Below, in pieces: positions 4,190 to 25,662 of a stretch of DNA of 25,897 nucleotides. This DNA is from a virus. Its lineage: Duplodnaviria; Heunggongvirae; Uroviricota; Caudoviricetes. Both the position numbers and the translations under genes were made by a program. The stretch lies in the IMG/VR virus record IMGVR_UViG_2698536403_000009; one strand, given 5' to 3'. Every line of letters begins with the position of its first letter. The first letter of the stretch is position 1. A model generated the notes under the pieces. That model had not been told where the DNA came from. It saw only the letters and a program-made list of their open reading frames with translations, and searched no databases.

Positions 4190-5684
4190 TCTTTCACACA
4201 TTATTGCCGCAGCATTCAATGAACCGCTGCTTCTGGAGCCCGCCTATGCGCGGGTTTTCTTTTGCGCGCTCGGGCGCGAGATGGGGGCAGCAAGTCTTTC
4301 GGTACCACAACAGCAGGTACAGTTTGATGCTCCCGGAATGCTGGCTGAAACGGACGAGTACATGGCCGGAGGTAAACGACCAGCCCGTGTTTACAGGGTG
4401 GTGAACGGTATTGCTGTACTGCCGGTGACCGGCACGCTGGTGCACCGGCTGGGGGGTATGCGGCCATTTTCCGGAATGACAGGCTATGACGGTATTGTCG
4501 CCTGTCTTCAGCAGGCAATGGCGGATAGCCAGGTGCGGGGCGTACTGCTGGACATTGACAGTCCGGGCGGGCAGGCCGCCGGCGCGTTTGACTGCGCTGA
4601 CATGATTTACCGCCTCCGTCAGCAGAAGCCGGTCTGGGCACTGTGCAATGACACGGCCTGTTCTGCAGCCATGCTGCTGGCGTCGGCCTGCTCCCGACGG
4701 CTGGTTACCCAGACATCCCGTATCGGCTCCATTGGCGTGATGATGAGCCATGTCAGCTATGCCGGTCATCTGGCGCAGGCCGGTGTGGATATCACGCTGA
4801 TTTACTCAGGGACGCACAAGGTGGATGGCAATCAGTTTGAAGCCTTACCGGCAGAGGTTCGCCAGGACATGCAGCAGCGCATTGATGCGGCGCGCCGGAT
4901 GTTTGCCGAAAAAGTGGCCATGTTTACCGGTCTGTCTGTTGATGCCGTCACGGGAACAGAGGCCGCCGTTTTTGAAGGTCAGTCCGGCATTGATGCCGGG
5001 CTGGCGGATGAATTAGTCAATGCGTCGGATGCCATCAGTGTGATGGCCACGGCGCTGAACAGTAATGTCAGAGGAGGCACTATGCCGCAATTAACTGCAA
5101 CGGAAGCCGCCGCGCAGGAGAACCAGCGAGTGATGGGGATCCTGACATGCCAGGAAGCGAAAGGACGTGAACAGCTTGCCACGATGCTGGCAGGACAACA
5201 GGGCATGAGCGTTGAACAGGCCCGGGCGATTCTGGCCGCGGCGGCACCGCAGCAGCCGGTGGCATCCGCGCAGAGTGAAGCCGATCGCATTATGGCGTGT
5301 GAAGAAGCGAACGGTCGTGAACAACTGGCGGCAACGCTGGCGGCGATGCCGGAGATGACGGTGGAAAAAGCCCGCCCGATCCTGGCGGCTGCACCACTGG
5401 CGGATGCCGGGCCCTCACTTCGTGATCAGATCATGGCCCTGGATGAGGCAAAAGGGGCAGAAGCGCAGGCTGAAAAACTGGCGGCCTGCCCGGGAATGAC
5501 CGTGGAGAACGCCCGGGCTGTGCTGGCTGCGGGATCAGGTAAGGCCGAACCGGTCTCTGCATCCACAACCGCCTTGTTTGAACATTTCATGGCGAATCAT
5601 TCACCGGCAGCGGTGCGGGGTGGCGTGTCACAGACGTCAGCAGACGGTGATGCGGACGTGAAAATGCTCATGGCCATGCCATGA
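4179..5684 (+). CDS. C: Prohead protease / minor capsid protein C (S49 ClpP-like peptidase domain plus C-terminal scaffold-like repeats)
   Basis: GTG start after GAGGAG RBS; N-terminal two thirds resemble lambda gpC (LEPAYARVFFCAL, GIAVLPV.GTLV, SIGVMMSH, IYSGTHKVDGN); 501 aa versus about 439 aa in lambda because of extra C-terminal repeats. Confidence 0.9.
   Translation: MRRNLSHIIAAAFNEPLLLEPAYARVFFCALGREMGAASLSVPQQQVQFDAPGMLAETDEYMAGGKRPARVYRVVNGIAVLPVTGTLVHRLGGMRPFSGMTGYDGIVACLQQAMADSQVRGVLLDIDSPGGQAAGAFDCADMIYRLRQQKPVWALCNDTACSAAMLLASACSRRLVTQTSRIGSIGVMMSHVSYAGHLAQAGVDITLIYSGTHKVDGNQFEALPAEVRQDMQQRIDAARRMFAEKVAMFTGLSVDAVTGTEAAVFEGQSGIDAGLADELVNASDAISVMATALNSNVRGGTMPQLTATEAAAQENQRVMGILTCQEAKGREQLATMLAGQQGMSVEQARAILAAAAPQQPVASAQSEADRIMACEEANGREQLAATLAAMPEMTVEKARPILAAAPLADAGPSLRDQIMALDEAKGAEAQAEKLAACPGMTVENARAVLAAGSGKAEPVSASTTALFEHFMANHSPAAVRGGVSQTSADGDADVKMLMAMP
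5082..5684 (+). CDS. nu3: Nu3-like scaffolding protein, in-frame internal start within C (copy 1)
   Basis: AGGAGG 5 nt upstream of ATG 5082, in frame with C; lambda Nu3 is produced the same way; contains three tandem ~40-aa repeats (I..GREQLA...GMTVE.AR.ILAA). Confidence 0.55.
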   Translation: MPQLTATEAAAQENQRVMGILTCQEAKGREQLATMLAGQQGMSVEQARAILAAAAPQQPVASAQSEADRIMACEEANGREQLAATLAAMPEMTVEKARPILAAAPLADAGPSLRDQIMALDEAKGAEAQAEKLAACPGMTVENARAVLAAGSGKAEPVSASTTALFEHFMANHSPAAVRGGVSQTSADGDADVKMLMAMP

Positions 5685-5720
5685 AGTCAGTGCTGACCAT
5701 CAATATGAGGTTTTAACAAA

Positions 5721-6068
5721 ATGGTGACGAAAACCATCACTGAACAGCGTGCGGAAGTACGTATTTTTGCCGGTAATGATCCGGCTCATACCGCCACAGG
5801 CAGCAGCGGGATTTCTTCTGCAACACCGGCTCTGACGCCCCTGATGCCGGATGAAGCCACCGGGAAACTGGTGGTCTGGGATGGACAGAAAGCCGGTAGT
5901 GCGGTTGGCATACTGGTACTGCCGCTTGAAGGCACAGAGACGGTGCTGACCTATTACAAGTCGGGGACCTTTGCGACGGAGGCAATCCGCTGGCCTGACA
6001 GTGTGGATGAACACAAAAAGGCAAATGCCTTTGCCGGTACAGCCCTGAGTCACGCGGCTCTGCCGTAA
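5721..6068 (+). CDS. D: Head decoration protein D (copy 1)
   Basis: 115 aa; NDPAHTATG...TPLM...KLVVWDG...GILV...YYKSGTF matches lambda gpD. Confidence 0.9.
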   Translation: MVTKTITEQRAEVRIFAGNDPAHTATGSSGISSATPALTPLMPDEATGKLVVWDGQKAGSAVGILVLPLEGTETVLTYYKSGTFATEAIRWPDSVDEHKKANAFAGTALSHAALP

Positions 6069-6125
6069 CACGTTATCAGGCCACCATGGCGGCCTGACTG
6101 ATTTCTGAATGAAAGGAACTGATTT

Positions 6126-6413
6126 ATGGGATTGTTTACGACCCGCCAGTTACTCGGTTATACCGAACAAAAAGTGAAATTCCGTGCGCTGTTTCTGGAG
6201 CTGTTTTTCCGCCGTACGGTGAATTTCCACACCGAAGAGGTGATGCTGGACAAAATTACCGGAAAAACGCCGGTGGCGGCCTATGTCTCCCCGATCGTTG
6301 AAGGAAAAGTGCTTCGCCATCGCGGTGGTGAAACCCGCGTGTTACGTCCATACTGCTGGACATTGACAGTCCGGGCGGGCAGGCCGCCGGCGCGTTTGAC
6401 TGCGCTGACATGA
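6126..6413 (+). pseudogene. Truncated major capsid gene fragment (E'), first ~75 codons fused out of frame to C sequence
   Basis: First 75 residues identical to the intact E at 7934; homology to E stops at 6349, then the frame runs into C-derived sequence and terminates at 6413. Confidence 0.8.
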
Positions 6414-7492
6414 TTTACCGCCTCCGTCAGCAGAAGCCGGTCTGGGCACTGTGCAATGACACGGCCTGTTCTGCAGCCATGCTGCTGGCGTCGGCCTGCT
6501 CCCGACGGCTGGTTACCCAGACATCCCGTATCGGCTCCATTGGCGTGATGATGAGCCATGTCAGCTATGCCGGTCATCTGGCGCAGGCCGGTGTGGATAT
6601 CACGCTGATTTATGCCGGGGCGCACAAGGTGGATGGCAATCAGTTTGAAGCGTTGCCGGCAGAGGTTCGCCAGGATATGCAGCAGCGGATTGATGCGGCG
6701 CACCGGATGTTTGCCGAAAAAGTGGCGATGTATACCGGGTTGTCTGTGGATGCGGTCACGGGAACAGAGGCCGCCGTTTTTGAAGGTCAGTCCGGCATTG
6801 AGGCCGGGCTGGCGGATGAATTAATCAATGCGTCGGATGCCATCAGTGTGATGGCCACGGCGCTGAACAGTAATGTCAGAGGAGGCACTATGCCGCAATT
6901 AACTGCAACGGAAGCCGCCGTGCAGGAGAACCAGCGAGTGATGGGGATCCTGACATGCCAGGAAGCGAAAGGACGTGAACAGCTTGCCACGATGCTGGCA
7001 GGACAACAGGGCATGAGCGTTGAACAGGCCCGGGCGATTCTGGCCGCGGCGGCACCGCAGCAGCCGGTGGCATCCGCGCAGAGTGAAGCCGATCGCATTA
7101 TGGCGTGTGAAGAAGCGAACGGTCGTGAACAACTGGCGGCAACGCTGGCGGCGATGCCGGAGATGACGGTGGAAAAAGCCCGCCCGATCCTGGCGGCTGC
7201 ACCACTGGCGGATGCCGGGCCCTCACTTCGTGATCAGATCATGGCCCTGGATGAGGCAAAAGGGGCAGAAGCGCAGGCTGAAAAACTGGCGGCCTGCCCG
7301 GGAATGACCGTGGAGAACGCCCGGGCTGTGCTGGCTGCGGGATCAGGTAAGGCCGAACCGGTCTCTGCATCCACAACCGCCTTGTTTGAACATTTCATGG
7401 CGAATCATTCACCGGCAGCGGTGCGGGGTGGCGTGTCACAGACGTCAGCAGACGGTGATGCGGACGTGAAAATGCTCATGGCCATGCCATGA
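6350..7492 (+). pseudogene. 5'-truncated copy of C (lacks N-terminal ~120 codons and its start); contains an intact Nu3-like ORF
   Basis: Homologous to C from codon ~122 onward; no upstream start or RBS in frame (the track ORF 6410 starts at an internal Met). Confidence 0.75.
6890..7492 (+). CDS. nu3: Nu3-like scaffolding protein (copy 2)
   Basis: Same AGGAGG-ATG start as copy 1 at +1808 offset; intact to the stop at 7492. Confidence 0.5.
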   Translation: MPQLTATEAAVQENQRVMGILTCQEAKGREQLATMLAGQQGMSVEQARAILAAAAPQQPVASAQSEADRIMACEEANGREQLAATLAAMPEMTVEKARPILAAAPLADAGPSLRDQIMALDEAKGAEAQAEKLAACPGMTVENARAVLAAGSGKAEPVSASTTALFEHFMANHSPAAVRGGVSQTSADGDADVKMLMAMP

Positions 7493-7528
7493 AGTCAGTG
7501 CTGACCATCAATATGAGGTTTTAACAAA

Positions 7529-7876
7529 ATGGTGACGAAAACCATCACTGAACAGCGTGCGGAAGTACGTATTTTTGCCGGTAATGATCCGGCTCATACC
7601 GCCACAGGCAGCAGCGGGATTTCTTCTGCAACACCGGCTCTGACGCCCCTGATGCCGGATGAAGCCACCGGGAAACTGGTGGTCTGGGATGGACAGAAAG
7701 CCGGTAGTGCGGTTGGCATACTGGTACTGCCGCTTGAAGGCACAGAGACGGTGCTGACCTATTACAAGTCGGGGACCTTTGCGACGGAGGCAATCCGCTG
7801 GCCTGACAGTGTGGATGAACACAAAAAGGCAAATGCCTTTGCCGGTACAGCCCTGAGTCACGCGGCTCTGCCGTAA
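7529..7876 (+). CDS. D: Head decoration protein D (copy 2)
   Basis: Protein identical to copy 1. Confidence 0.85.
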   Translation: MVTKTITEQRAEVRIFAGNDPAHTATGSSGISSATPALTPLMPDEATGKLVVWDGQKAGSAVGILVLPLEGTETVLTYYKSGTFATEAIRWPDSVDEHKKANAFAGTALSHAALP

Positions 7877-7933
7877 CACGTTATCAGGCCACCATGGCGG
7901 CCTGACTGATTTCTGAATGAAAGGAACTGATTT

Positions 7934-8962
7934 ATGGGATTGTTTACGACCCGCCAGTTACTCGGTTATACCGAACAAAAAGTGAAATTCCGTGCGCTGT
8001 TTCTGGAGCTGTTTTTCCGCCGTACGGTGAATTTCCACACCGAAGAGGTGATGCTGGACAAAATTACCGGAAAAACGCCGGTGGCGGCCTATGTCTCCCC
8101 GATCGTTGAAGGAAAAGTGCTTCGCCATCGCGGTGGTGAAACCCGCGTGTTACGTCCGGGCTACGTCAAGCCCAAACACGAATTTAATTACCAGCAGGCG
8201 GTTGAGCGCCTTCCTGGTGAAGATCCGGCTCAGCTGAACGACCCGGCCTACCGTCGTCTGCGTATCATTACCGATAACCTCAAACAGGAAGAGCACGCCA
8301 TTGTCCAGGTGGAAGAAATGCAGGCGGTGAATGCCGTGCTGTATGGCAAATACACCATGGAAGGGGATCAGTTTGACACGGTTGAGGTGGATTTCGGGCG
8401 CTCTGAAGGAAATAACATTGAGCAGGCTGACGGTAAAAAATGGTCTGAGCAGGACCGTGATACGTTTGATCCGACGCATGATATTGACCTCTACTGCGAT
8501 CAGGCCAGCGGCCTTGTGAATATCGCCATTATGGACGGTACGGTCTGGCGTCTGCTGAATGGCTTTAAGCTGTTCCGCGAAAAACTGGATACCCGTCGCG
8601 GCTCAAATTCACAACTCGAAACGGCAGTGAAAGATCTGGGCGCAGTGGTGTCCTTCAAGGGGTATTACGGCGATCTGGCCATTGTGGTGGCGAAAACGTC
8701 TTATGTGGCAGAGGACGGTACCGAAAAACGTTATCTGCCGGAGGGCATGCTGGTGCTGGGGAATACGGCGGCAGAGGGGATTCGTTGCTATGGAGCCATT
8801 AAGGATGCACAGGCGTTGTCTGAAGGAGTGGTGGCTTCTTCCCGTTACCCGAAACACTGGCTGACCGTGGGCGATCCGTCCTGTGAATTCACCATGACGC
8901 AGTCCGCTCCGCTGATGGTGCTGCCGGATCCTGATGAGTTTGTGGTGGTACAGGTGAAATAA
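7934..8962 (+). CDS. E: Major capsid protein E (intact copy)
   Basis: 342 aa; similar to lambda gpE throughout (YVSPIV.G.V...GG, PGYVKPKHE, DPAYRR.RII, RRGSNS.LETAVKDLG, SAPLM.L.DPDEFV); AAGGA RBS. Confidence 0.95.
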   Translation: MGLFTTRQLLGYTEQKVKFRALFLELFFRRTVNFHTEEVMLDKITGKTPVAAYVSPIVEGKVLRHRGGETRVLRPGYVKPKHEFNYQQAVERLPGEDPAQLNDPAYRRLRIITDNLKQEEHAIVQVEEMQAVNAVLYGKYTMEGDQFDTVEVDFGRSEGNNIEQADGKKWSEQDRDTFDPTHDIDLYCDQASGLVNIAIMDGTVWRLLNGFKLFREKLDTRRGSNSQLETAVKDLGAVVSFKGYYGDLAIVVAKTSYVAEDGTEKRYLPEGMLVLGNTAAEGIRCYGAIKDAQALSEGVVASSRYPKHWLTVGDPSCEFTMTQSAPLMVLPDPDEFVVVQVK

Positions 8963-15257: not shown

Positions 15258-15955
15258 TGCAGGATATTCACGAAGAAAGCCTGAACGAGTCGGTTAAATC
15301 AGAGCAGTCACCGCGGGTGGTGCTCTGGGAAATTGACCTGACGGTGCAGGGTGGTGAGCGGTATTTTTTCTGCAATGAGCTGAATGAAAAAGGGGAGGCG
15401 GTTACCTGGCAGGGGCGGCAATATCAGGCATACCCGATTGACGGCAGTGGCTTTGAGATGAACGGGAAGGGCAGCAGTGCCCGCCCGTCGCTGACGGTGT
15501 CGAATCTGTTCGGTCTGGTCACCGGGATGGCGGAGGACCTGCAGAGCCTGGTGGGGGCCACGGTGGTCCGCCGCCGGGTGTATGCCCGTTTTCTGGATGC
15601 GGTGAATTTTGTGGCGGGCAATCCGGAAGCGGACCCGGAGCAGGAGCTGAGCGACCGCTGGGTGGTGGAGCAGATGTCAGAGCTGACGGCCATGACAGCC
15701 TCGTTTGTGCTGGCAACACCGACGGAGACGGACGGAGCGCTGTTTCCCGGTCGCATTATGCTGGCGAATACCTGTATGTGGACCTACCGCTCTGATGAGT
15801 GTGGTTACACGGGCGGGGCTGTGGCGGATGAGTTCGATAAACCCACCACCGATATCCGTAAGGACAGATGCAGCAAGTGCATGCGCGGGTGTGAGATGCG
15901 CGGCATGGTGGCTAATTTTGGCGGTTTCCTTTCCATTAATAAACTTTCGCAGTAA
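15257..15955 (+). CDS. L: Minor tail protein L
   Basis: 232 aa, same size as lambda gpL; C-terminal Cys cluster (CMWTYRSDECGYTGG...CSKCMRGC) typical of gpL. Confidence 0.9.
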   Translation: MQDIHEESLNESVKSEQSPRVVLWEIDLTVQGGERYFFCNELNEKGEAVTWQGRQYQAYPIDGSGFEMNGKGSSARPSLTVSNLFGLVTGMAEDLQSLVGATVVRRRVYARFLDAVNFVAGNPEADPEQELSDRWVVEQMSELTAMTASFVLATPTETDGALFPGRIMLANTCMWTYRSDECGYTGGAVADEFDKPTTDIRKDRCSKCMRGCEMRGMVANFGGFLSINKLSQ

Positions 15956-15965
15956 ATCCCGGTTT

Positions 15966-16709
15966 ATGACACAGACTGAATCAGCGATTCTGGCGCATGC
16001 CCGGCGGTGTGCGCCTGCGGAGTCGTGCGGCTTCGTGGTGAGAACGCCGGAGGGGGAGCGGTATATCCCTTGTGTGAATATCTCTGCAGAGCCGGAGGCG
16101 TATTTTCGTATTGCACCGGAAGACTGGCTGCGGGCAGAGATGCAGGGGGAGATTGTGGCACTGGTCCACAGTCATCCCGGTGGTCTGCCCTGGCTGAGCG
16201 AGGCCGACCGGCGGCTGCAGATAAAAAGTGCACTGTCCTGGTGGCTGGTCTGCCGGGGGGAAATTCATAAATTCCGCTGTGTGCCACATCTGACAGGACG
16301 GCGCTTTGAGCACGGGGTGACGGACTGTTACACGCTGTTCCGGGATGCCTACCATCTGGCGGGAATTGATATGCCGGATTTTGAGCGTGAGGATGACTGG
16401 TGGCGCAACGGTCAGAACCTTTACCTGGACAATATGGCGGTCACCGGCTTTTACCGGGTGCCCCTGTCCTCTGCACAGGCGGGCGATATCCTGCTGTGCT
16501 GCTTTGGCGCATCGGTGGCCAATCATGCCGCCATTTACTGCGGCAACGGTGAACTGCTTCACCATCTGCCTGAACAACTGAGTAAACGGGAGAGGTATTC
16601 CGAAAAATGGCAACGACGAACGCATTCTGTCTGGCGTCACCGCCACTGGCACGCATCTGCCTTCACGGGGATTTACAACGATTTGGCCGCCGCCTCAGCC
16701 TGTATGTGA
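15966..16709 (+). CDS. K: Tail assembly protein K
   Basis: Start ATG 15966 (MTQTESAILAHARRCAPAESCGFVV, nearly identical to lambda gpK N-terminus); the track ORF 15705 is an upstream extension overlapping L. Confidence 0.9.
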   Translation: MTQTESAILAHARRCAPAESCGFVVRTPEGERYIPCVNISAEPEAYFRIAPEDWLRAEMQGEIVALVHSHPGGLPWLSEADRRLQIKSALSWWLVCRGEIHKFRCVPHLTGRRFEHGVTDCYTLFRDAYHLAGIDMPDFEREDDWWRNGQNLYLDNMAVTGFYRVPLSSAQAGDILLCCFGASVANHAAIYCGNGELLHHLPEQLSKRERYSEKWQRRTHSVWRHRHWHASAFTGIYNDLAAASACM

Positions 16710-17287
16710 ACACGGCAGCGGAAGCCATCCGGGCGCTGTCGTTACAGGTGCCCGGATTTCGCCGTCAGATGAACGAAGGGTGGTACCAGATACGTATTGC
16801 CGGTGATGACACGGCACCGGAGGCGGTGTACGCCCGTCTTCACGAACAGCTGGGTGAGGGAACGGTCATCCACATTGTGCCGCGACTGGCCGGGGCCGGA
16901 AAGGGTGGACTGCAGATTGTGCTGGGGGCGGCAGCCATCGTGGGGTCGTTCTTCACTGCCGGAGGCTCGATGGCGTTATGGGGTACAGCCCTGAGTGCCG
17001 GTGGTTTTTCTGCCACCACGATGCTGTTTTCACTGGGTGCCAGTATGATTCTGGGCGGTGTGGCCCAGATGCTGGCCCCGAAGGCAAAAACACCGGATTA
17101 CCGCGCAACGGATAACGGCAGACAGAACACGTATTTTTCGTCACTGGACAACATGATTGCCCAGGGTAACCCGATGCCGGTGCCTTACGGGGAAATGCTG
17201 GTTGGCTCCCGCCGTATATCCCAGGACATCAGCACCCGTGATGAAGGCGGGGGCGGAACGGTCGTGGTTATCGGGCGACAGGGATAA
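16607..17287 (+). CDS. I: Tail assembly protein I
   Basis: 226 aa; ARICL.GDLQRFGRR, IHIVPR.AGA..GG, NTYFSSLDNM.AQGN as lambda gpI; overlaps K by ~100 bp as in lambda. Confidence 0.9.
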   Translation: MATTNAFCLASPPLARICLHGDLQRFGRRLSLYVNTAAEAIRALSLQVPGFRRQMNEGWYQIRIAGDDTAPEAVYARLHEQLGEGTVIHIVPRLAGAGKGGLQIVLGAAAIVGSFFTAGGSMALWGTALSAGGFSATTMLFSLGASMILGGVAQMLAPKAKTPDYRATDNGRQNTYFSSLDNMIAQGNPMPVPYGEMLVGSRRISQDISTRDEGGGGTVVVIGRQG

Positions 17288-17291
17288 AACA

Positions 17292-17326
17292 TAAAAAAAT
17301 CCCGCAGTGATCGCGGAGCTGCGGGG
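17292..17326 (-). terminator. Intrinsic terminator oriented for the minus strand
   Basis: Stem cccgcag/ctgcggg (17301-17307 / 17319-17325), 11-nt loop; on the minus strand the hairpin is followed by atttttttat (plus 17291-17300). Confidence 0.5.
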
Positions 17327-17390
17327 ACAGACAAATGAAGATCAATGTTAAGGAGTTGTTTTTGTTACTCGGGCAAAAAAACACTAACGC
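17292..17390 (-). ncRNA. Candidate small RNA (~100 nt) in the I-J intergenic insert
   Basis: Sigma70-like promoter on the minus strand (-35 TTCACA = plus 17419-17424; 16-bp spacer; -10 TATAAT = plus 17397-17402) followed ~100 nt downstream by the intrinsic terminator at 17292-17326; no plausible ORF on that strand. Confidence 0.3.
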
Positions 17391-17396
17391 AGCGAA

Positions 17397-17424
17397 ATTA
17401 TAAGCGCCACAGTCAGTGTGTGAA
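17397..17424 (-). promoter_or_regulatory. Putative sigma70 promoter (TTCACA-16-TATAAT) on the minus strand
   Basis: Perfect -10 hexamer, 5/6 match at -35, 16-bp spacer; lies in the AT-rich insert between I and J. Confidence 0.35.
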
Positions 17425-17496
17425 AATGTGAAGATATTCAGAATTTTTATGCCATTACCGGTTTTAACCAACAGGATTATCGGTGGGCATGAAAGA

Positions 17497-17530
17497 AAAC
17501 CCCGGTATCTGCTGATACCGGGGTTTCTCT
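17497..17530. terminator. Perfect 13-bp inverted repeat hairpin with U-rich flanks on both strands (bidirectional terminator-like)
   Basis: aaaccccggtatc (17497-17509), loop tgct, gataccggggttt (17514-17526); followed on plus by ctcttt and on minus by tctttc. Confidence 0.5.
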
Positions 17531-17629
17531 TTAGCATGGCAGAAATGTGTTTCATGCTTTTCGGGCGAAGGATATCCGACTTCTGTACGGAATGGCAAGT
17601 GGCGGTTAATTTATTCAGGGGAAGGCTGT

Positions 17630-20600
17630 ATGGGAAAAGGTGGCGGTAAGGCACACACGCCTCGTGAGGCGAAGGATAATCTCAAATCCACGCAGATGAT
17701 GAGCGTGATTGATGCGATTGGTGAGGGACCGATAGAAGGCCCGGTGAAAGGCCTGCAGAGTATTCTGGTGAACAAAACCCCGCTGACGGGCACGGACGGT
17801 AATCCCGTGATACACGGTGTGACCGCGGTCTGGCGTGCCGGGGAGCAGGAGCAGACACCACTGGAAGGCTTTGAGTCCTCCGGAGCTGAAACCGGACTGG
17901 GCGTGGAAGTGACGAAGGCAAAGCCGGTAACGCGCACCATTACATCCGCGAACATTGACCGCCTGCGGGTCACCTTCGGGGTGCAGTCACTGTTGGAGAC
18001 CACCTCAAAGGGCGACCGTAATCCCTCTTCTGTCCGGCTGCTGATTCAGTTGCAGCGTAACGGTAACTGGGTGACGGAAAAGGATGTCACCATTAACGGC
18101 AAGACCACCTCACAGTACCTGGCGTCGGTGATTCTGGATAATCTGCCTCCCCGTCCTTTTAACATCCGGATGGTCCGGGAGACAGCGGACAGCACCCCGG
18201 ACCAGCTGCAGAATAAGACGCTCTGGTCGTCATACACCGAAATCATCGATGTGAAACAGTGCTACCCGAACACGGCGATTGTGGGGCTGCAGGTGGATGC
18301 GGAGCAGTTTGGCGGTCAGCAGATGACGGTGAACTACCATATCCGCGGTCGCATCATCCAGGTGCCGTCAAACTATGACCCGGAAAAACGCACTTACAGC
18401 GGCATCTGGGACGGCAGCCTGAAACCGGCATACAGCAATAACCCGGCCTGGTGTCTGTGGGACATGCTGACCCACCCGCGCTACGGAATGGGAAAACGCC
18501 TGGGGGCGGCGGATGTTGACAAGTGGGCGCTGTATGCCATCGGGCAGTACTGCGACCAGACGGTCCCGGATGGTTTCGGGGGCACAGAGCCGCGGATGAC
18601 CTTTAATGCGTACCTGTCACAACAGCGTAAGGCGTGGGACGTTCTCAGTGATTTCTGCTCGGCGATGCGCTGTATGCCGGTATGGAACGGCCAGACGCTG
18701 ACGTTCGTTCAGGACCGCCCGTCGGATGTGGTGTGGCCGTACACCAACTGCGATGTGGTGGTGGATGATAACGGCGTGGGGTTTCGCTACAGCTTCAGCG
18801 CCCTGAAGGACCGCCACACGGCGGTGGAGGTGAATTACACCGACCCGCAGAACGGCTGGCAGACCTCCACGGAACTGGTGGAAGACCCGGAAGCCATACT
18901 GCGCTACGGGCGCAACCTGCTGAAGATGGATGCGTTCGGTTGCACCAGTCGCGGTCAGGCCCACCGTGCCGGGCTGTGGGTGATAAAGACCGGACTGCTG
19001 GAAACGCAGACGGTGGATTTCACGCTCGGGTCACAGGGGCTGCGTCACACACCCGGTGACATTATTGAAATCTGTGATAACGACTATGCCGGGACCCTGA
19101 CCGGCGGACGTGTCCTGTCCATCGATGCCGCCAGCCGCACCCTGACGCTGGACCGTGAGGTGACACTGCCGGAGACCGGTGCCGCCACGGTGAACCTGAT
19201 TAACGGCAGCGGTAAGCCGGTGAGTGTGGACATCGCCGCACACCCCGCGCCGGACCGGATACAGGTCAGTACCCTGCCTGATGGTGTGGAGACATACGGT
19301 GTATGGGGACTCTCCCTGCCGTCACTGCGTCGTCGCCTGTTCCGCTGTGTCTCCATCCGGGAAAACACGGACGGCACCTTTGCCATCACGGCGGTGCAGC
19401 ACGTACCGGAAAAAGAAGCCATCGTGGATAACGGGGCCAGCTTTGAGCCACTGTCCGGTTCGCTGAACAGCGTCATCCCGCCGGCTGTGCAGCACCTGAC
19501 GGTGGAGGTGAGCGCGGCTGACGGTCAGTATCTGGCGCAGGCGAAATGGGACACGCCGCGGGTGGTGAAGGGTGTGCGCTTCAGTCTGCGCCTGACCAAC
19601 GGAAGCGGAGAAGACAGCCGTCTGGTGACCACCGCCATCACTGCGGATACAGAGCATCGTTTCAGTGGTCTGCCGCTCGGGGAATACACCCTGACAGTCA
19701 GGGCAATTAACAGTTATGGCCAGCAGGGGGAACCGGCCACCACCACGTTCAGGATTAATGCACCTGCGGTACCCGCCACGATTGAGCTGACACCGGGCTA
19801 TTTTCAGATAACAGCGGTCCCGCGTCTTGCGGTGTATGACCCGACGGTACAGTTTGAATTCTGGTTCTCCGAAAAACGCATCACGAACACGGCACAGGTG
19901 GAAAAATCTGCCCGTTATCTGGGGACCGGCAGTCAGTGGACTGTCCAGGGGAGCCGGATTAAGCCGGGGACGGATTTCTGGTTTTATGTGCGCAGCGTCA
20001 ATCTGGTGGGCAAGTCTGCGTTTGTGGAAGCCAGCGGGCAGGCCAGTAATGATGGTGAAGGGTATCTGGAAATTTTCCGGGAAAAAATAGGAAAACTGCA
20101 TCTGGCTCAGGGGCTGTGGGAGCTGATAGACAACAGCCAGCTTGCGGATGAGATGGCGGAGATGAAGACCACCATCACCGAAACCCGCAATGAAATCACA
20201 CAGACGGTCAGTAAAACGCTGGAAGACCAGAGCGCCACCATTCAGCAGATACAGCGCGTGCAGAAGGACACAAATGATGACCTTGCTGCACTTTACATGC
20301 TGAAGGTACAGAAAACAAAAAATGGCATACCCTATGTTGCCGGTATTGGAGCGGGGATTGAGGATACTGATGGCCAGCCCCTGAGCAACATACTGCTGCT
20401 GGCTGACCGTATTGCGATGATTAACCCGGAGGACGGCAACACCACGCCGTTATTTGTGGCGCAGGGGAATCAGCTGTTCATGAACGATGTGTTCCTGAAG
20501 CGGCTGTTTGCGGTGAGTATCACCTCGTCCGGCAATCCCCCGACGTTTTCCCTGACGCCGGAGGGCAGGCTGACCGCAAGAAATGCTGATATCAGCGGTA

Positions 20601-21103
20601 ACGTGAATGCGAATTCCGGGACGCTCAACAACGTCACGATTAACGAGAACTGTCGGGTTCTGGGAAAACTGTCCGCGAACCAGATTGAAGGCGATCTCGT
20701 TAAAACAGTGGGCAAAGCTTTCCCCCGGGATTCCCGTGCACCGGAGCGGTGGCCATCAGGGACCATTACCGTCAGGGTTTATGACGATCAGCCGTTTGAC
20801 CGGCAAATTGTTATTCCGGCGGTGGCATTCAGCGGCGCTAAACATGAGAGAGAGCATACTGATATTTACTCCTCATGCCGTCTGATAGTGCGGAAAAACG
20901 GTGCTGAAATTTATAACCGTACCGCGCTGGATAATACGCTGATTTACAGTGGCGTTATTGATATGCCTGCCGGTCATGGTCACATGACGCTGGAGTTTTC
21001 GGTGTCAGCATGGCTGGTAAATAACTGGTATCCCACAGCAAGTATCAGCGATCTGCTGGTTGTGGTGATGAAAAAATCCACAGCAGGTATCAGTATCAGC
21101 TGA
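17630..21103 (+). CDS. J: Tail tip / host specificity protein J
   Basis: 1157 aa, colinear with lambda gpJ ([22 protein letters not shown]...); last ~150 aa differ substantially from lambda. Confidence 0.95.
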
Positions 21104-21833: not shown

Positions 21834-22283
21834 ATGGCAGTAAAGATTTCAGGTGTACTGAAAGACGGCACAGGAAAACCGGTACAGAACTGCACAATCC
21901 AGCTGAAAGCAAAACGTAACAGTACCACGGTGGTGGTGAACACGGTGGCCTCTGAAAATCCGGATGAAGCCGGTCGTTACAGCATGGACGTTGAGTACGG
22001 TCAGTACAGCGTCATTCTGTTGGTGGAGGGCTTCCCGCCGTCACATGCCGGGACCATCACCGTGTATGAAGATTCTCAACCCGGTACGCTGAATGATTTT
22101 CTCGGTGCCATGTCGGAGGATGACGTCCGGCCGGAGGCACTGCGTCGTTTTGAACTGATGGTGGAAGAAGCGGCGCGTCACGCTGAGGAGGCGAAGAAGA
22201 ATGCCGGAGAGGCGGAGACGTCCGCGAGGAATGCCGGCATATCAGCCAGTCAGGCATCAATGCGTCGGATGCCATCAGTGTGA
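21834..22283 (+). pseudogene. stf: Side tail fiber stf, N-terminal fragment (~141 codons of stf then 8 junk codons and stop)
   Basis: MAVKISGVLKDGTGKPVQNCTIQLKA.RNSTTVVVNTV.SENPDEAGRYSMDVEYGQYSVIL nearly identical to lambda Stf N-terminus; homology ends at ~22256 where C-derived sequence begins. Confidence 0.8.
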
Positions 22284-23053
22284 TGGCCACGGCGCTGAAC
22301 AGTAATGTCAGAGGAGGCACTATGCCGCAATTAACTGCAACGGAAGCCGCCGTGCAGGAGAACCAGCGAGTGATGGGGATCCTGACATGCCAGGAAGCGA
22401 AAGGACGTGAACAGCTTGCCACGATGCTGGCAGGGCAACAGGGCATGAGCGTTGAACAGGCCCGGGCGATTCTGGCCGCGGCGGCACCGCAGCAGCCGGT
22501 GGCATCCGCGCAGAGTGAAGCCGATCGCATTATGGCGTGTGAAGAAGCGAACGGTCGTGAACAACTGGCAGTTACGCTGGCGGCGATGCCGGAGATGACG
22601 GTGGAAAAAGCCCGCCCGATCCTGGCTGCTTCACCGCAGGCGAATGCCGGACCATCACTCCGTGATCAGATCATGGCCCTGGATGAGGCAAAAGGGGCTG
22701 AGGCGCAGGCTGAACAGCTGGCTGCCTGCCCGGGAATGACCGTGGAGAGCGCCCGGGCTGTGCTGGCTGCGGGATCAGGTAAGGCAGAACCGGTCTCTGC
22801 ATCCACAACCGCCCTGTTTGAACATTTCATGGCGAACCATTCACCGGCTGCGGTCCAGGGGGGCGTGTCACAGGCGTCAGAAGACGGTGATGCGGACGTG
22901 AAAATGCTCATGGCCATGCCATGAAGTCAGTGCTGAACATCAATACGAGGTTTTAACAATATGGTGACGAAAACCATCACTGAACAGCGTGCGGAAGTAC
23001 ATATTTTTGCCGGTAATGATCCGGCTCACACCGCCACAGGCAGCAGCGGGATT
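22256..23053 (+). repeat. Inserted head-gene cassette (third, diverged copy): last ~22 codons of C, complete Nu3-like ORF with RBS, C-D intergenic, first ~31 codons of D
   Basis: Homology to 5016-5815 / 6824-7623 starts at tcaatgcgtcggatgcc (22256) and ends after ggcagcagcgggatt (23053); roughly 3-5% diverged from copies 1 and 2 (my estimate from protein differences and a few DNA mismatches). Confidence 0.8.
22322..22924 (+). CDS. nu3: Nu3-like scaffolding protein (copy 3, diverged), embedded within the stf locus
   Basis: Intact ORF with AGGAGG RBS; about 10 aa substitutions relative to copies 1 and 2. Confidence 0.5.
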   Translation: MPQLTATEAAVQENQRVMGILTCQEAKGREQLATMLAGQQGMSVEQARAILAAAAPQQPVASAQSEADRIMACEEANGREQLAVTLAAMPEMTVEKARPILAASPQANAGPSLRDQIMALDEAKGAEAQAEQLAACPGMTVESARAVLAAGSGKAEPVSASTTALFEHFMANHSPAAVQGGVSQASEDGDADVKMLMAMP

Positions 23054-23979: not shown

Positions 23980-24563
23980 TGGCATTCAGAATGAGTGAAC
24001 AAGCACGGACCATAAAAATTTATAATCTGCTGGCCGGAACTAATGAATTTATTGGTGAAGGTGACGCATATATTCCGCCTCATACAGGTCTGCCAGCAAA
24101 CAGTACCGATATTGCACCACCAGATATTCCTGCTGGCTTTGTGGCTGTTTTCAACAGTGATGAGGCATCGTGGCATCTCGTTGAAGACCATCGGGGTAAA
24201 ACGGTTTATGACGTAGCGTCAGGGGACGAGTTATTTATTTCTGAACTCGGTCCGTTACCGGAAAATGTTACCTGGTTATCGCCGGAAGGGGAGTTTCAGA
24301 AGTGGAACGGCACAGCCTGGGTGAAGGATACGGAAGCAGAAAAAATGTTCCGGATCCGGGAGGCGGAAGAAACAAAAAACAACCTGATGCAGGTAGCCAG
24401 TGAGCATATTGCGCCGCTTCAGGATGCTGCAGATCTGGAAATTGCAACGGAGGAAGAAACCTCATTGCTGGAAGCCTGGAAAAAGTATCGGGTGTTGCTG
24501 AACCGTGTTGATACATCAACTGCACCTGATATTGAGTGGCCTACGAACCCTGTCAGGGAGTAA
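23979..24563 (+). CDS. tfa: Tail fiber assembly protein Tfa
   Basis: 194 aa, same size as lambda Tfa; TAATG overlap with stf stop; conserved C-terminal [24 protein letters not shown]. Confidence 0.9.
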
Positions 24564-25342: not shown

Positions 25343-25612
25343 ATGCTGCCGCAGCATAGCGATATTGAAATAGCCTGGTATGCTTCGATACAGCAGGAGC
25401 CGAATGGCTGGAAGACCGTCACCACACAGTTCTACATCCAGGAATTCAGTGAGTATATTGCGTCACTGCAGGATGCTGTAGATCTGGAAATCGCAACGGA
25501 GGAAGAAAGATCGTTGCTGGAGGCATGGAATAAATATCGGGTATTGTTGAATCGTGTTGATACATCAACTGCACCTGATATTGAGTGGCCTGCAAATCCT
25601 GTCAGGGAGTAA
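25343..25612 (+). CDS. Tfa-like protein fragment (tail fiber assembly C-terminal domain only)
   Basis: 89 aa; C-terminal 50 aa ([48 protein letters not shown]) ~85% identical to the Tfa C-terminus, N-terminal part unrelated; AAGGGG RBS. Confidence 0.65.
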
Positions 25613-25662
25613 TCATTGGGATTATGCCGCAGACACGTCGTATGCAGGAACGTGCTGCGGTT
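25451..25662 (+). repeat. Direct repeat (tfa 3' end plus hairpin), right copy
   Basis: See left copy 24402-24612. Confidence 0.8.

Follow-up and report, generated by a model that had tools for sequence, protein, structure and literature searches.

Which genetic element separates the tail genes I and J in this lambdoid prophage DNA? The stretch that we analyzed, a sequence of 25,897 nucleotides assigned to the Caudoviricetes (IMG/VR record IMGVR_UViG_2698536403_000009) and hereafter called the window, contains 342 bp between the two genes (positions 17288-17629). A preliminary description, made from the sequence alone, proposed that these 342 bp carry a self-contained unit of promoter, RNA and terminator on the minus strand, antisense to the late operon. 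The proposal was right, in that the unit is 99% identical to pasB of E. coli E2348/69; the feature is real and its first interpretation essentially correct, but the sRNA was already known. We estimate at about 90% the probability that positions 17288 to approximately 17450 constitute the gene for PasB, an Hfq-dependent, trans-acting base-pairing sRNA of lambdoid prophages.

The spacer between I and J and its identity with pasB

The spacer is AT-rich, as described, with a GC content of 43.6% as compared to 55.4% for the window as a whole. The accompanying statement that I and J abut in phage lambda was mistaken, since a gap of 60 bp separates them there (I ends at 15444 and J starts at 15505). 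The existence of a long spacer thus stands, but it is imprecise to refer to all 342 bp as an insert relative to lambda. The minus-strand sigma-70 promoter is present at the proposed location, as is the minus-strand hairpin followed by seven T residues (stem CCCGCAG/CTGCGGG, T7 at 17299-17293). In a region of 1.3 kb, three promoter-like sites were identified, as compared to 0.7 expected from shuffled sequences. The coordinates of all features are listed in Table 1.

PasB (pathogenicity-associated sRNA B) is one of five prophage sRNAs identified in the EPEC strain E2348/69 (Pearl Mizrahi et al., 2021; PMC8550237). It is encoded on the minus strand of NC_011601.1 (1466343..1466261, 83 nt) in prophage PP6, between E2348C_1436 and E2348C_1437, and the published Northern probe is AATCCCGCAGTGATCGCGGAGCT (PMC8550237, Table S6). 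This probe has an exact match at positions 17298-17320 of the window. Coordinates were transferred by alignment, in which a position in the NC_011601.1 record equals the position in the window plus 1448968. Of the 83 nt of PasB, 82 are identical, and the sole mismatch, at 17349, corresponds to PasB position 27. A difference at position 27 also distinguishes PasB from PasB-2 (Zhu, Shabalina and Storz, 2026; bioRxiv 10.64898/2026.05.13.724894), and the window copy appears to be the position-27 variant of PasB, as described for PasB-2.

Between the end of I and about 17450, the two sequences differ only at 17349 and at one position near 17444, and neither the promoter nor the terminator is affected. 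The E2348/69 gene is likewise located between a tail assembly gene and gpJ, in the same slot of a lambdoid prophage and on the same strand as the window copy, antisense to I and J. The two loci differ on the J side: the E2348/69 spacer is 240 bp long and contains another hairpin, whereas the window has 342 bp with a 13-bp bidirectional hairpin.

PasB has been reported to be embedded in the phage structural operon, often with IS009 nearby (Zhu et al., 2026). A full-length IS009 (RF02111, Rfam, 223.8 bits) was identified downstream in the window, at 24322-24520 on the plus strand, which resembles the reported flanks of PasB. A second IS009 copy with 89% identity is located about 1 kb further downstream, in the tail-fibre region (approximately 25447-25662). 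The window also contains a tandem duplication of 1807 bp in the head-gene region (portal protease/scaffold, decoration), at 4543-6349 and 6351-8157 with 99% identity, and a third, partial copy of this repeat (22256-23053, 798 bp, 96% identity) downstream of J and lom. Either a genuine rearrangement or an artefact of the assembly could account for the tandem duplication.

A search of the spacer against Rfam yielded no family at the gathering thresholds, nor at E <= 10; weak matches to SSRC34_2, STnc310, CopA and others were far below threshold and all fell on terminator-like hairpins. Among 5426 complete genomes of E. coli, 1612 contain a match to the spacer, and among the matches listed no feature was annotated underneath it in the RefSeq records of E. 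coli.

Table 1. Features of the I-J region (window positions; strand and basis as available).
Feature	Position	Strand	Basis or remark
Tail assembly gene I	16607-17287		PHROGs and RefSeq annotation of an identical locus
Conserved pasB module (terminator, RNA body, promoter, upstream dyad)	17288..17450	-	Alignment with E2348/69
PasB sRNA, literature-annotated, 83 nt	17293..17375	-	Coordinates transferred via alignment with E2348/69
Predicted primary transcript, 98 nt, G17390 to end of U7	17293..17390	-	Predicted start 7 nt after the -10
Intrinsic terminator (7-bp stem CCCGCAG/CUGCGGG, 11-nt loop, U7 tail)	17293..17325	-	Sequence and fold
Candidate seed AACUCCUUAACAUUGAUCUUCAU, C/U-rich, with anti-Shine-Dalgarno-like CUCCUU	17334..17356	-	Conservation and predicted accessibility
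Sigma-70 promoter (-35 TTCACA 17424-17419, 16-bp spacer, -10 TATAAT 17402-17397)	17397..17424	-	11/12 consensus positions
CRP-like dyad TCTGA-N6-TCACA	17427..17442	.	Invariant half-sites; centre about -44.5 from the predicted start
Alternative cassette upstream of J, outside pasB	17451..17629	.	Similarity to E2348/69 stops at about 17450
Bidirectional terminator-like hairpin, perfect 13-bp stem	17497-17509/17514-17526	both	Folding
Central tail fibre/tail tip gene J	17630-21103		PHROGs and RefSeq annotation of an identical locus

Conserved and variable elements of the module

Using the left 158 bp of the spacer as the query in a sensitive blastn search, matches were obtained at 5507 places in 1809 of these 5426 genomes. 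A single genome has as many as 10 such places, and the identities to the window ranged from 100% down to about 73%. The module was also found in 147 phage records, most of which represent Stx1- and Stx2-converting phages. The taxonomic range is narrow, in that an exact-pattern scan of one genome per species recovered E. albertii only, plus two contigs from other species that are probably assembly contaminants. Both of these consist of E. coli lambdoid tail DNA: NZ_JBHTEB010000006.1 (Streptomyces flavalbus, 3408 bp) is 95.8% identical to positions 16159-19572 of the window, and NZ_FWPT01000051.1 (Parendozoicomonas haliclonae) is 460 bp long.

We aligned 21 I-J spacers, which comprised 19 non-redundant module sequences and 17 distinct predicted RNAs of 90-99 nt. 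In the relatives examined, the unit was always located in exactly the I-J slot. Such a comparison across lambdoid prophages had been suggested in the preliminary description, and it shows that the promoter and the terminator are kept in the relatives while the 5' body of the RNA has diverged, with only 5 of 28 positions invariant. The elements kept across the 19 sequences are the half-sites of the dyad, the -10 hexamer, GCGTTA at the predicted +1, AAUCUUC in the middle of the RNA, and the arms and U-tail of the terminator. This is the conservation pattern that would be expected of an expressed sRNA gene rather than of a coding sequence or of decaying DNA.

At the promoter, 18 of the 19 relatives keep a -10-like hexamer (TATAAT, AATAAT or TATCAT) at an unchanged place in the alignment, and the remaining one has a weakened form, GATAAA. 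The spacer of the promoter has diverged (3 of 21 positions invariant), and GCGTTA at predicted positions +1 to +6 is nearly invariant. The ends of the 83-nt PasB were taken from read coverage together with an approximate size on Northern blots (PMC8550237), and the published 5' end, at 17375, lies 15 nt further downstream than the promoter would predict. An alternative promoter for a 5' end at 17375 was rejected, as no hexamer with A2 and T6 is present at the right distance. It is possible that the coverage-based end is imprecise, or that the RNA is processed or trimmed at its 5' end after the U7 run. For the window locus, an RNA of 83-98 nt is predicted, depending on the start site.

The arms of the terminator (17325-17319 and 17307-17301) are strongly conserved, with all 14 positions of the 3' arm and U-tail and 6 of 7 positions of the 5' arm invariant. 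The U7 tail ends 6 nt from the stop codon of I. None of the 11 loop positions is invariant, and the loop varies in length from 4 to 16 nt among the relatives; in one of them 14 nt of the loop have been deleted, yet a 6-bp terminator stem with a tetraloop remains. The stem is invariant and thus offers no substitutions in which covariation could be seen. The predicted fold of the whole RNA was no more stable than that of shuffled sequences (z = -0.9 and -0.8). The case for an RNA gene accordingly rests not on folding energy but on the presence of a promoter and a terminator, on the conservation of both, and on the published experiments.

Within the candidate seed, 10 of 23 positions are invariant, including AUCUU. 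The mean predicted unpaired probability of R-AUCUU over the 17 variants was 0.80, as compared to 0.42-0.63 for the whole RNAs. Its position agrees with the proposal, based on conservation, that the seed of PasB is located just upstream of the terminator (Zhu et al., 2026). Because no common target motif was found for PasB in the original study (PMC8550237), conservation and predicted accessibility are the two grounds on which this putative seed is put forward.

The dyad TCTGA-N6-TCACA adjoins the -35 hexamer. Its half-sites are invariant in the 19 non-redundant relatives, and the central 6 bp occur in five forms. The dyad agrees with the CRP core TGTGA-N6-TCACA at 9 of 10 positions, with a single mismatch, and in TCTGA-N6-TCACATTT the right half and its flank match CRP perfectly. 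Since 0.84 matches of this quality are expected by chance per window, it is the conservation pattern and not the match that provides evidence for the dyad. Invariant halves around a variable centre are the pattern of a site for a dimeric factor, and CRP is suggested as a lead for the identity of this factor. In CRP-dependent promoters of class I or II, the site is centred at -41.5, or at -61.5, -71.5 and so on, and the dyad, with its centre at about -44.5, is thus not at a canonical activating position. PasB levels were higher in static overnight LB than in glucose-containing DMEM, and the CRP-repressed Spot 42 showed the opposite pattern (PMC8550237). The difference between LB and DMEM is compatible with control by CRP, though an effect of stationary phase or of low oxygen would explain it just as well.

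The right-hand part of the spacer behaves differently. The window cassette of approximately 180 bp is present in 1446 genomes, where it is almost always at least 99% identical. Strain EE72d and E. albertii have it with 100% identity, beside a different pasB allele. The J-side cassette recombines independently of pasB, and the spacer is a mosaic. The perfect 13-bp hairpin noted in the preliminary description is present, and its A-rich and U-rich flanks lengthen the stem to about 20 bp, with folding z-scores of -6.3 (plus strand) and -6.1 (minus strand). It is not, as had been suggested, an insulator within the conserved unit, but belongs to the swappable cassette. E2348/69 and most relatives do not have this cassette; their 240-bp spacers instead contain the hairpin GGCACCC-CGGA-GGGTGCC, which is followed by the U-rich tract TTGTTTTTGTG, and resembles a terminator, on the late-sense strand only, and in which a compensatory change from C:G to T:A as well as single-mismatch intermediates were observed. 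Because the 240-bp spacers hold a different hairpin at this place, a hairpin between the pasB promoter and J is a constant feature, and shielding of pasB from antisense read-through fits only the bidirectional hairpin of the window. A weak promoter-like site on the minus strand (TTGCCA-18-TATCCT, 17569-17598, 9 of 12 matches) was identified about 35 nt upstream of the hairpin at 17497-17526. Together, this site and the hairpin could delimit a second RNA of about 70 nt within the J-side cassette.

Diverged alleles in O157 Sakai

The O157 strain Sakai contains three homologous sRNAs, EcOnc22, EcOnc23 and EcOnc24, in prophages Sp15, Sp14 and Sp11, respectively, which are about 85 nt long on Northern blots and are destabilised in a delta-hfq mutant (Tree et al., 2014; PMC4104026). 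On NC_002695.2, the coordinates of all three fall inside I-J spacers, on the strand opposite to the tail genes, and the I-J spacers of Sp15, Sp14 and Sp11 all carry one diverged allele of the PasB family. Other diverged alleles are 73-82% identical to the module in the window.

Taken at face value on NC_002695.2, the Hfq CRAC peak of EcOnc22 is located upstream of the pasB-like promoter. To calibrate the coordinates, we used AsxR, which is placed by Rfam at 1268629-1268681 on NC_002695.2 as compared to the published 1268494-1268542, a shift of about +135 that also reproduces the stated distance of 282 bp between AsxR and stx2B. With this shift, the CRAC peak of EcOnc22 covers the body of the PasB homolog. 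The shift was calibrated at 1.27 Mb and appears to be similar at 2.2-2.9 Mb. In the same record, copies of STnc100 are located downstream of both stx1B and stx2B. The RNA predicted from the Sakai allele is 91 nt long, as compared to the observed size of about 85 nt.

Based on the coordinate calibration, the diverged PasB paralog in the I-J spacers of Sakai very probably corresponds to EcOnc22/23/24. It resembles PasB in its I-J slot, its orientation against the late genes, the dyad, the position of the -10, the AAUCUUC motif, the terminator and the dependence on Hfq, but has another 5' half of the RNA and another promoter spacer, with AATAAT as the -10 and a poor -35. No EHEC homolog of PasB is given in Table S6 of PMC8550237, and the EcOnc names are absent from the main text of Zhu et al. 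(2026). We infer the equivalence ourselves, as neither study states it.

The AgvB and AsxR anti-sRNAs (RF02702, RF02703) are likewise short, Hfq-binding sRNAs in the late region of lambdoid prophages and, like PasB, belong to families in which the 5' part varies and the 3' part is conserved. They differ in that they are 51-60 nt long, share no sequence similarity with PasB and are encoded at a moron site downstream of pR', where a convergent pair of sRNAs is located, whereas PasB is encoded in the tail operon. No match to RF02702 or RF02703 was obtained in the spacer of the window even at E <= 10, which places PasB outside these families. An activity of PasB as a sponge is unsupported, as its RIL-seq partners are mRNAs and no sRNA partner was counted.

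Function of PasB and other readings of the spacer

In E2348/69, PasB was detected by RNA-seq, Northern blot and RIL-seq, its size on the Northern blot agrees with the RNA-seq coverage, and its stability depends on Hfq, with log2 fold changes between the delta-hfq mutant and the wild-type of -6.8 in DMEM and -2.4 in static LB (PMC8550237). In total, 37 RIL-seq partners were identified, of which 30 were CDS or 5'UTR and none was an sRNA, and by the number of partners PasB ranked 15th among all RNAs in E2348/69 (PMC8550237). Chimeric fragments numbered 1820 in overnight static LB as compared to 258 in exponential DMEM, and PasB was the second RNA in 99-100% of them (PMC8550237), a position that is the signature of an Hfq-bound regulatory sRNA. 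Expression, approximate size, dependence on Hfq and RIL-seq behaviour have thus been demonstrated in published work on a locus with 99% identity to that of the window; the start site, the seed and the regulator at the dyad are predictions of the present analysis. No physiological phenotype of PasB has been reported in the literature.

In our preferred reading, transcription of PasB would begin at the sigma-70 promoter of the unit, with a predicted start near 17390, run leftward and antisense to the tail operon, and stop at the intrinsic terminator, where the U7 tail ends at 17293, to yield an RNA of 83-98 nt. The terminator hairpin and the U-tail would bind Hfq, and the conserved, C/U-rich and mostly single-stranded stretch just upstream of the terminator would pair with host and accessory mRNAs, in their 5'UTRs or their coding regions, chiefly when cultures are stationary or static. 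The pasB unit resembles the morons of lambdoid phages (bor and lom in lambda) in that it is AT-rich, is inserted among late genes, has a promoter and a terminator of its own and is expressed from the prophage, but it is non-coding and antisense to the late operon.

Alternatively, the spacer might act mainly in cis on the tail operon, either through pairing of PasB with the I-J mRNA, which could alter the processing of this mRNA or the expression of J, or through a hairpin in the late-sense transcript that could terminate or stabilise transcripts, with effects in trans being secondary. Starting 6 nt beyond the stop codon of I, PasB is perfectly complementary to the late transcript, and its confinement to exactly the I-J slot is in line with such a role, as is the hairpin that every relative keeps between the pasB promoter and J, which in the 240-bp spacers is followed by a U-rich tract in the late sense only and shows a compensatory change from C:G to T:A. 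Yet the late operon is silent in a lysogen, where PasB is abundant and has 37 trans partners on Hfq, and no data link PasB to the expression of tail genes. In lambda, Q-modified RNA polymerase reads through intrinsic terminators, and a late-sense terminator would therefore not limit J during lytic growth. We consider it unlikely that the spacer acts mainly in cis, although roles of PasB in cis and in trans are compatible and not mutually exclusive.

It is highly improbable that the spacer encodes a protein, whether as a coding moron or as a type I toxin-antitoxin pair in which the minus-strand RNA serves as the antitoxin to the product of a 22-codon ORF. This ORF is present on the plus strand at 17335-17403, as described, fully antisense to the RNA, with a plausible Shine-Dalgarno-like GGGGA 8 nt upstream, and within it a single codon differs from E2348/69, by a synonymous change (GTT to GTG). 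As a gene it does not hold up, since the ATG is lost in several relatives: the start codon is ACG in PhiR5_1, JLK-2012 and EE72d, and it is deleted in SF-468, UTAK-6 and OkiPb, while the frame encodes a different product of 31 amino acids in the YYZ-2008 group. The peptide is not hydrophobic and has no match in Pfam, and conservation tracks the features of the RNA and not the codons. The claim that the approximately 100 nt downstream of the minus-strand promoter contain no credible ORF was upheld. In the spacer, the ORFs of 128 amino acids on the minus strand and of 77 and 22 amino acids on the plus strand were rejected as candidates, having no match in Pfam or PHROG, and the shortest of them is not conserved.

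That the spacer is a decaying recombination remnant of lambdoid tail modules, with promoter- and terminator-like sequences that arose by chance, is scarcely credible: the spacer is a mosaic whose halves recombine independently, and simple consensus patterns do match by chance, but at least 17 variants show selective conservation of the functional elements, which contradicts the decayed remnant named as an alternative in the preliminary description, the module is present in one third of the complete E. coli genomes and in intact Stx phages, and expression of the PasB RNA has been published.

To the known PasB, the present analysis adds at least 17 variants of the slot, the link to EcOnc22-24, the conserved dyad, the independent J-side cassette and the gap in Rfam and RefSeq. 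A tentative and rather doubtful extension is that the I-J slot holds a single hypervariable superfamily of sRNAs, comprising PasB, EcOnc22-24 and at least 12 other alleles, with as many as 10 copies in a genome, which share the invariant CRP-like dyad and a 3' end with AAUCUUC and the terminator and have had their 5' halves swapped by recombination. If so, co-resident prophages would deliver related regulators that respond to catabolites or stationary phase and have different target ranges, and these sRNAs would, upon induction, have a second role in cis at the junction of I and J in the tail mRNA.

The PasB module is present in about one third of the complete E. coli genomes, including those of ExPEC and EHEC, and in Stx phages, yet it is unannotated at the RefSeq loci examined. 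Its recovery from the raw sequence shows that a reading of promoter-terminator architecture can find real prophage sRNAs. The link to EcOnc22-24, the catalogue of alleles, the dyad and the J-side cassette provide handles for working out the role of PasB.
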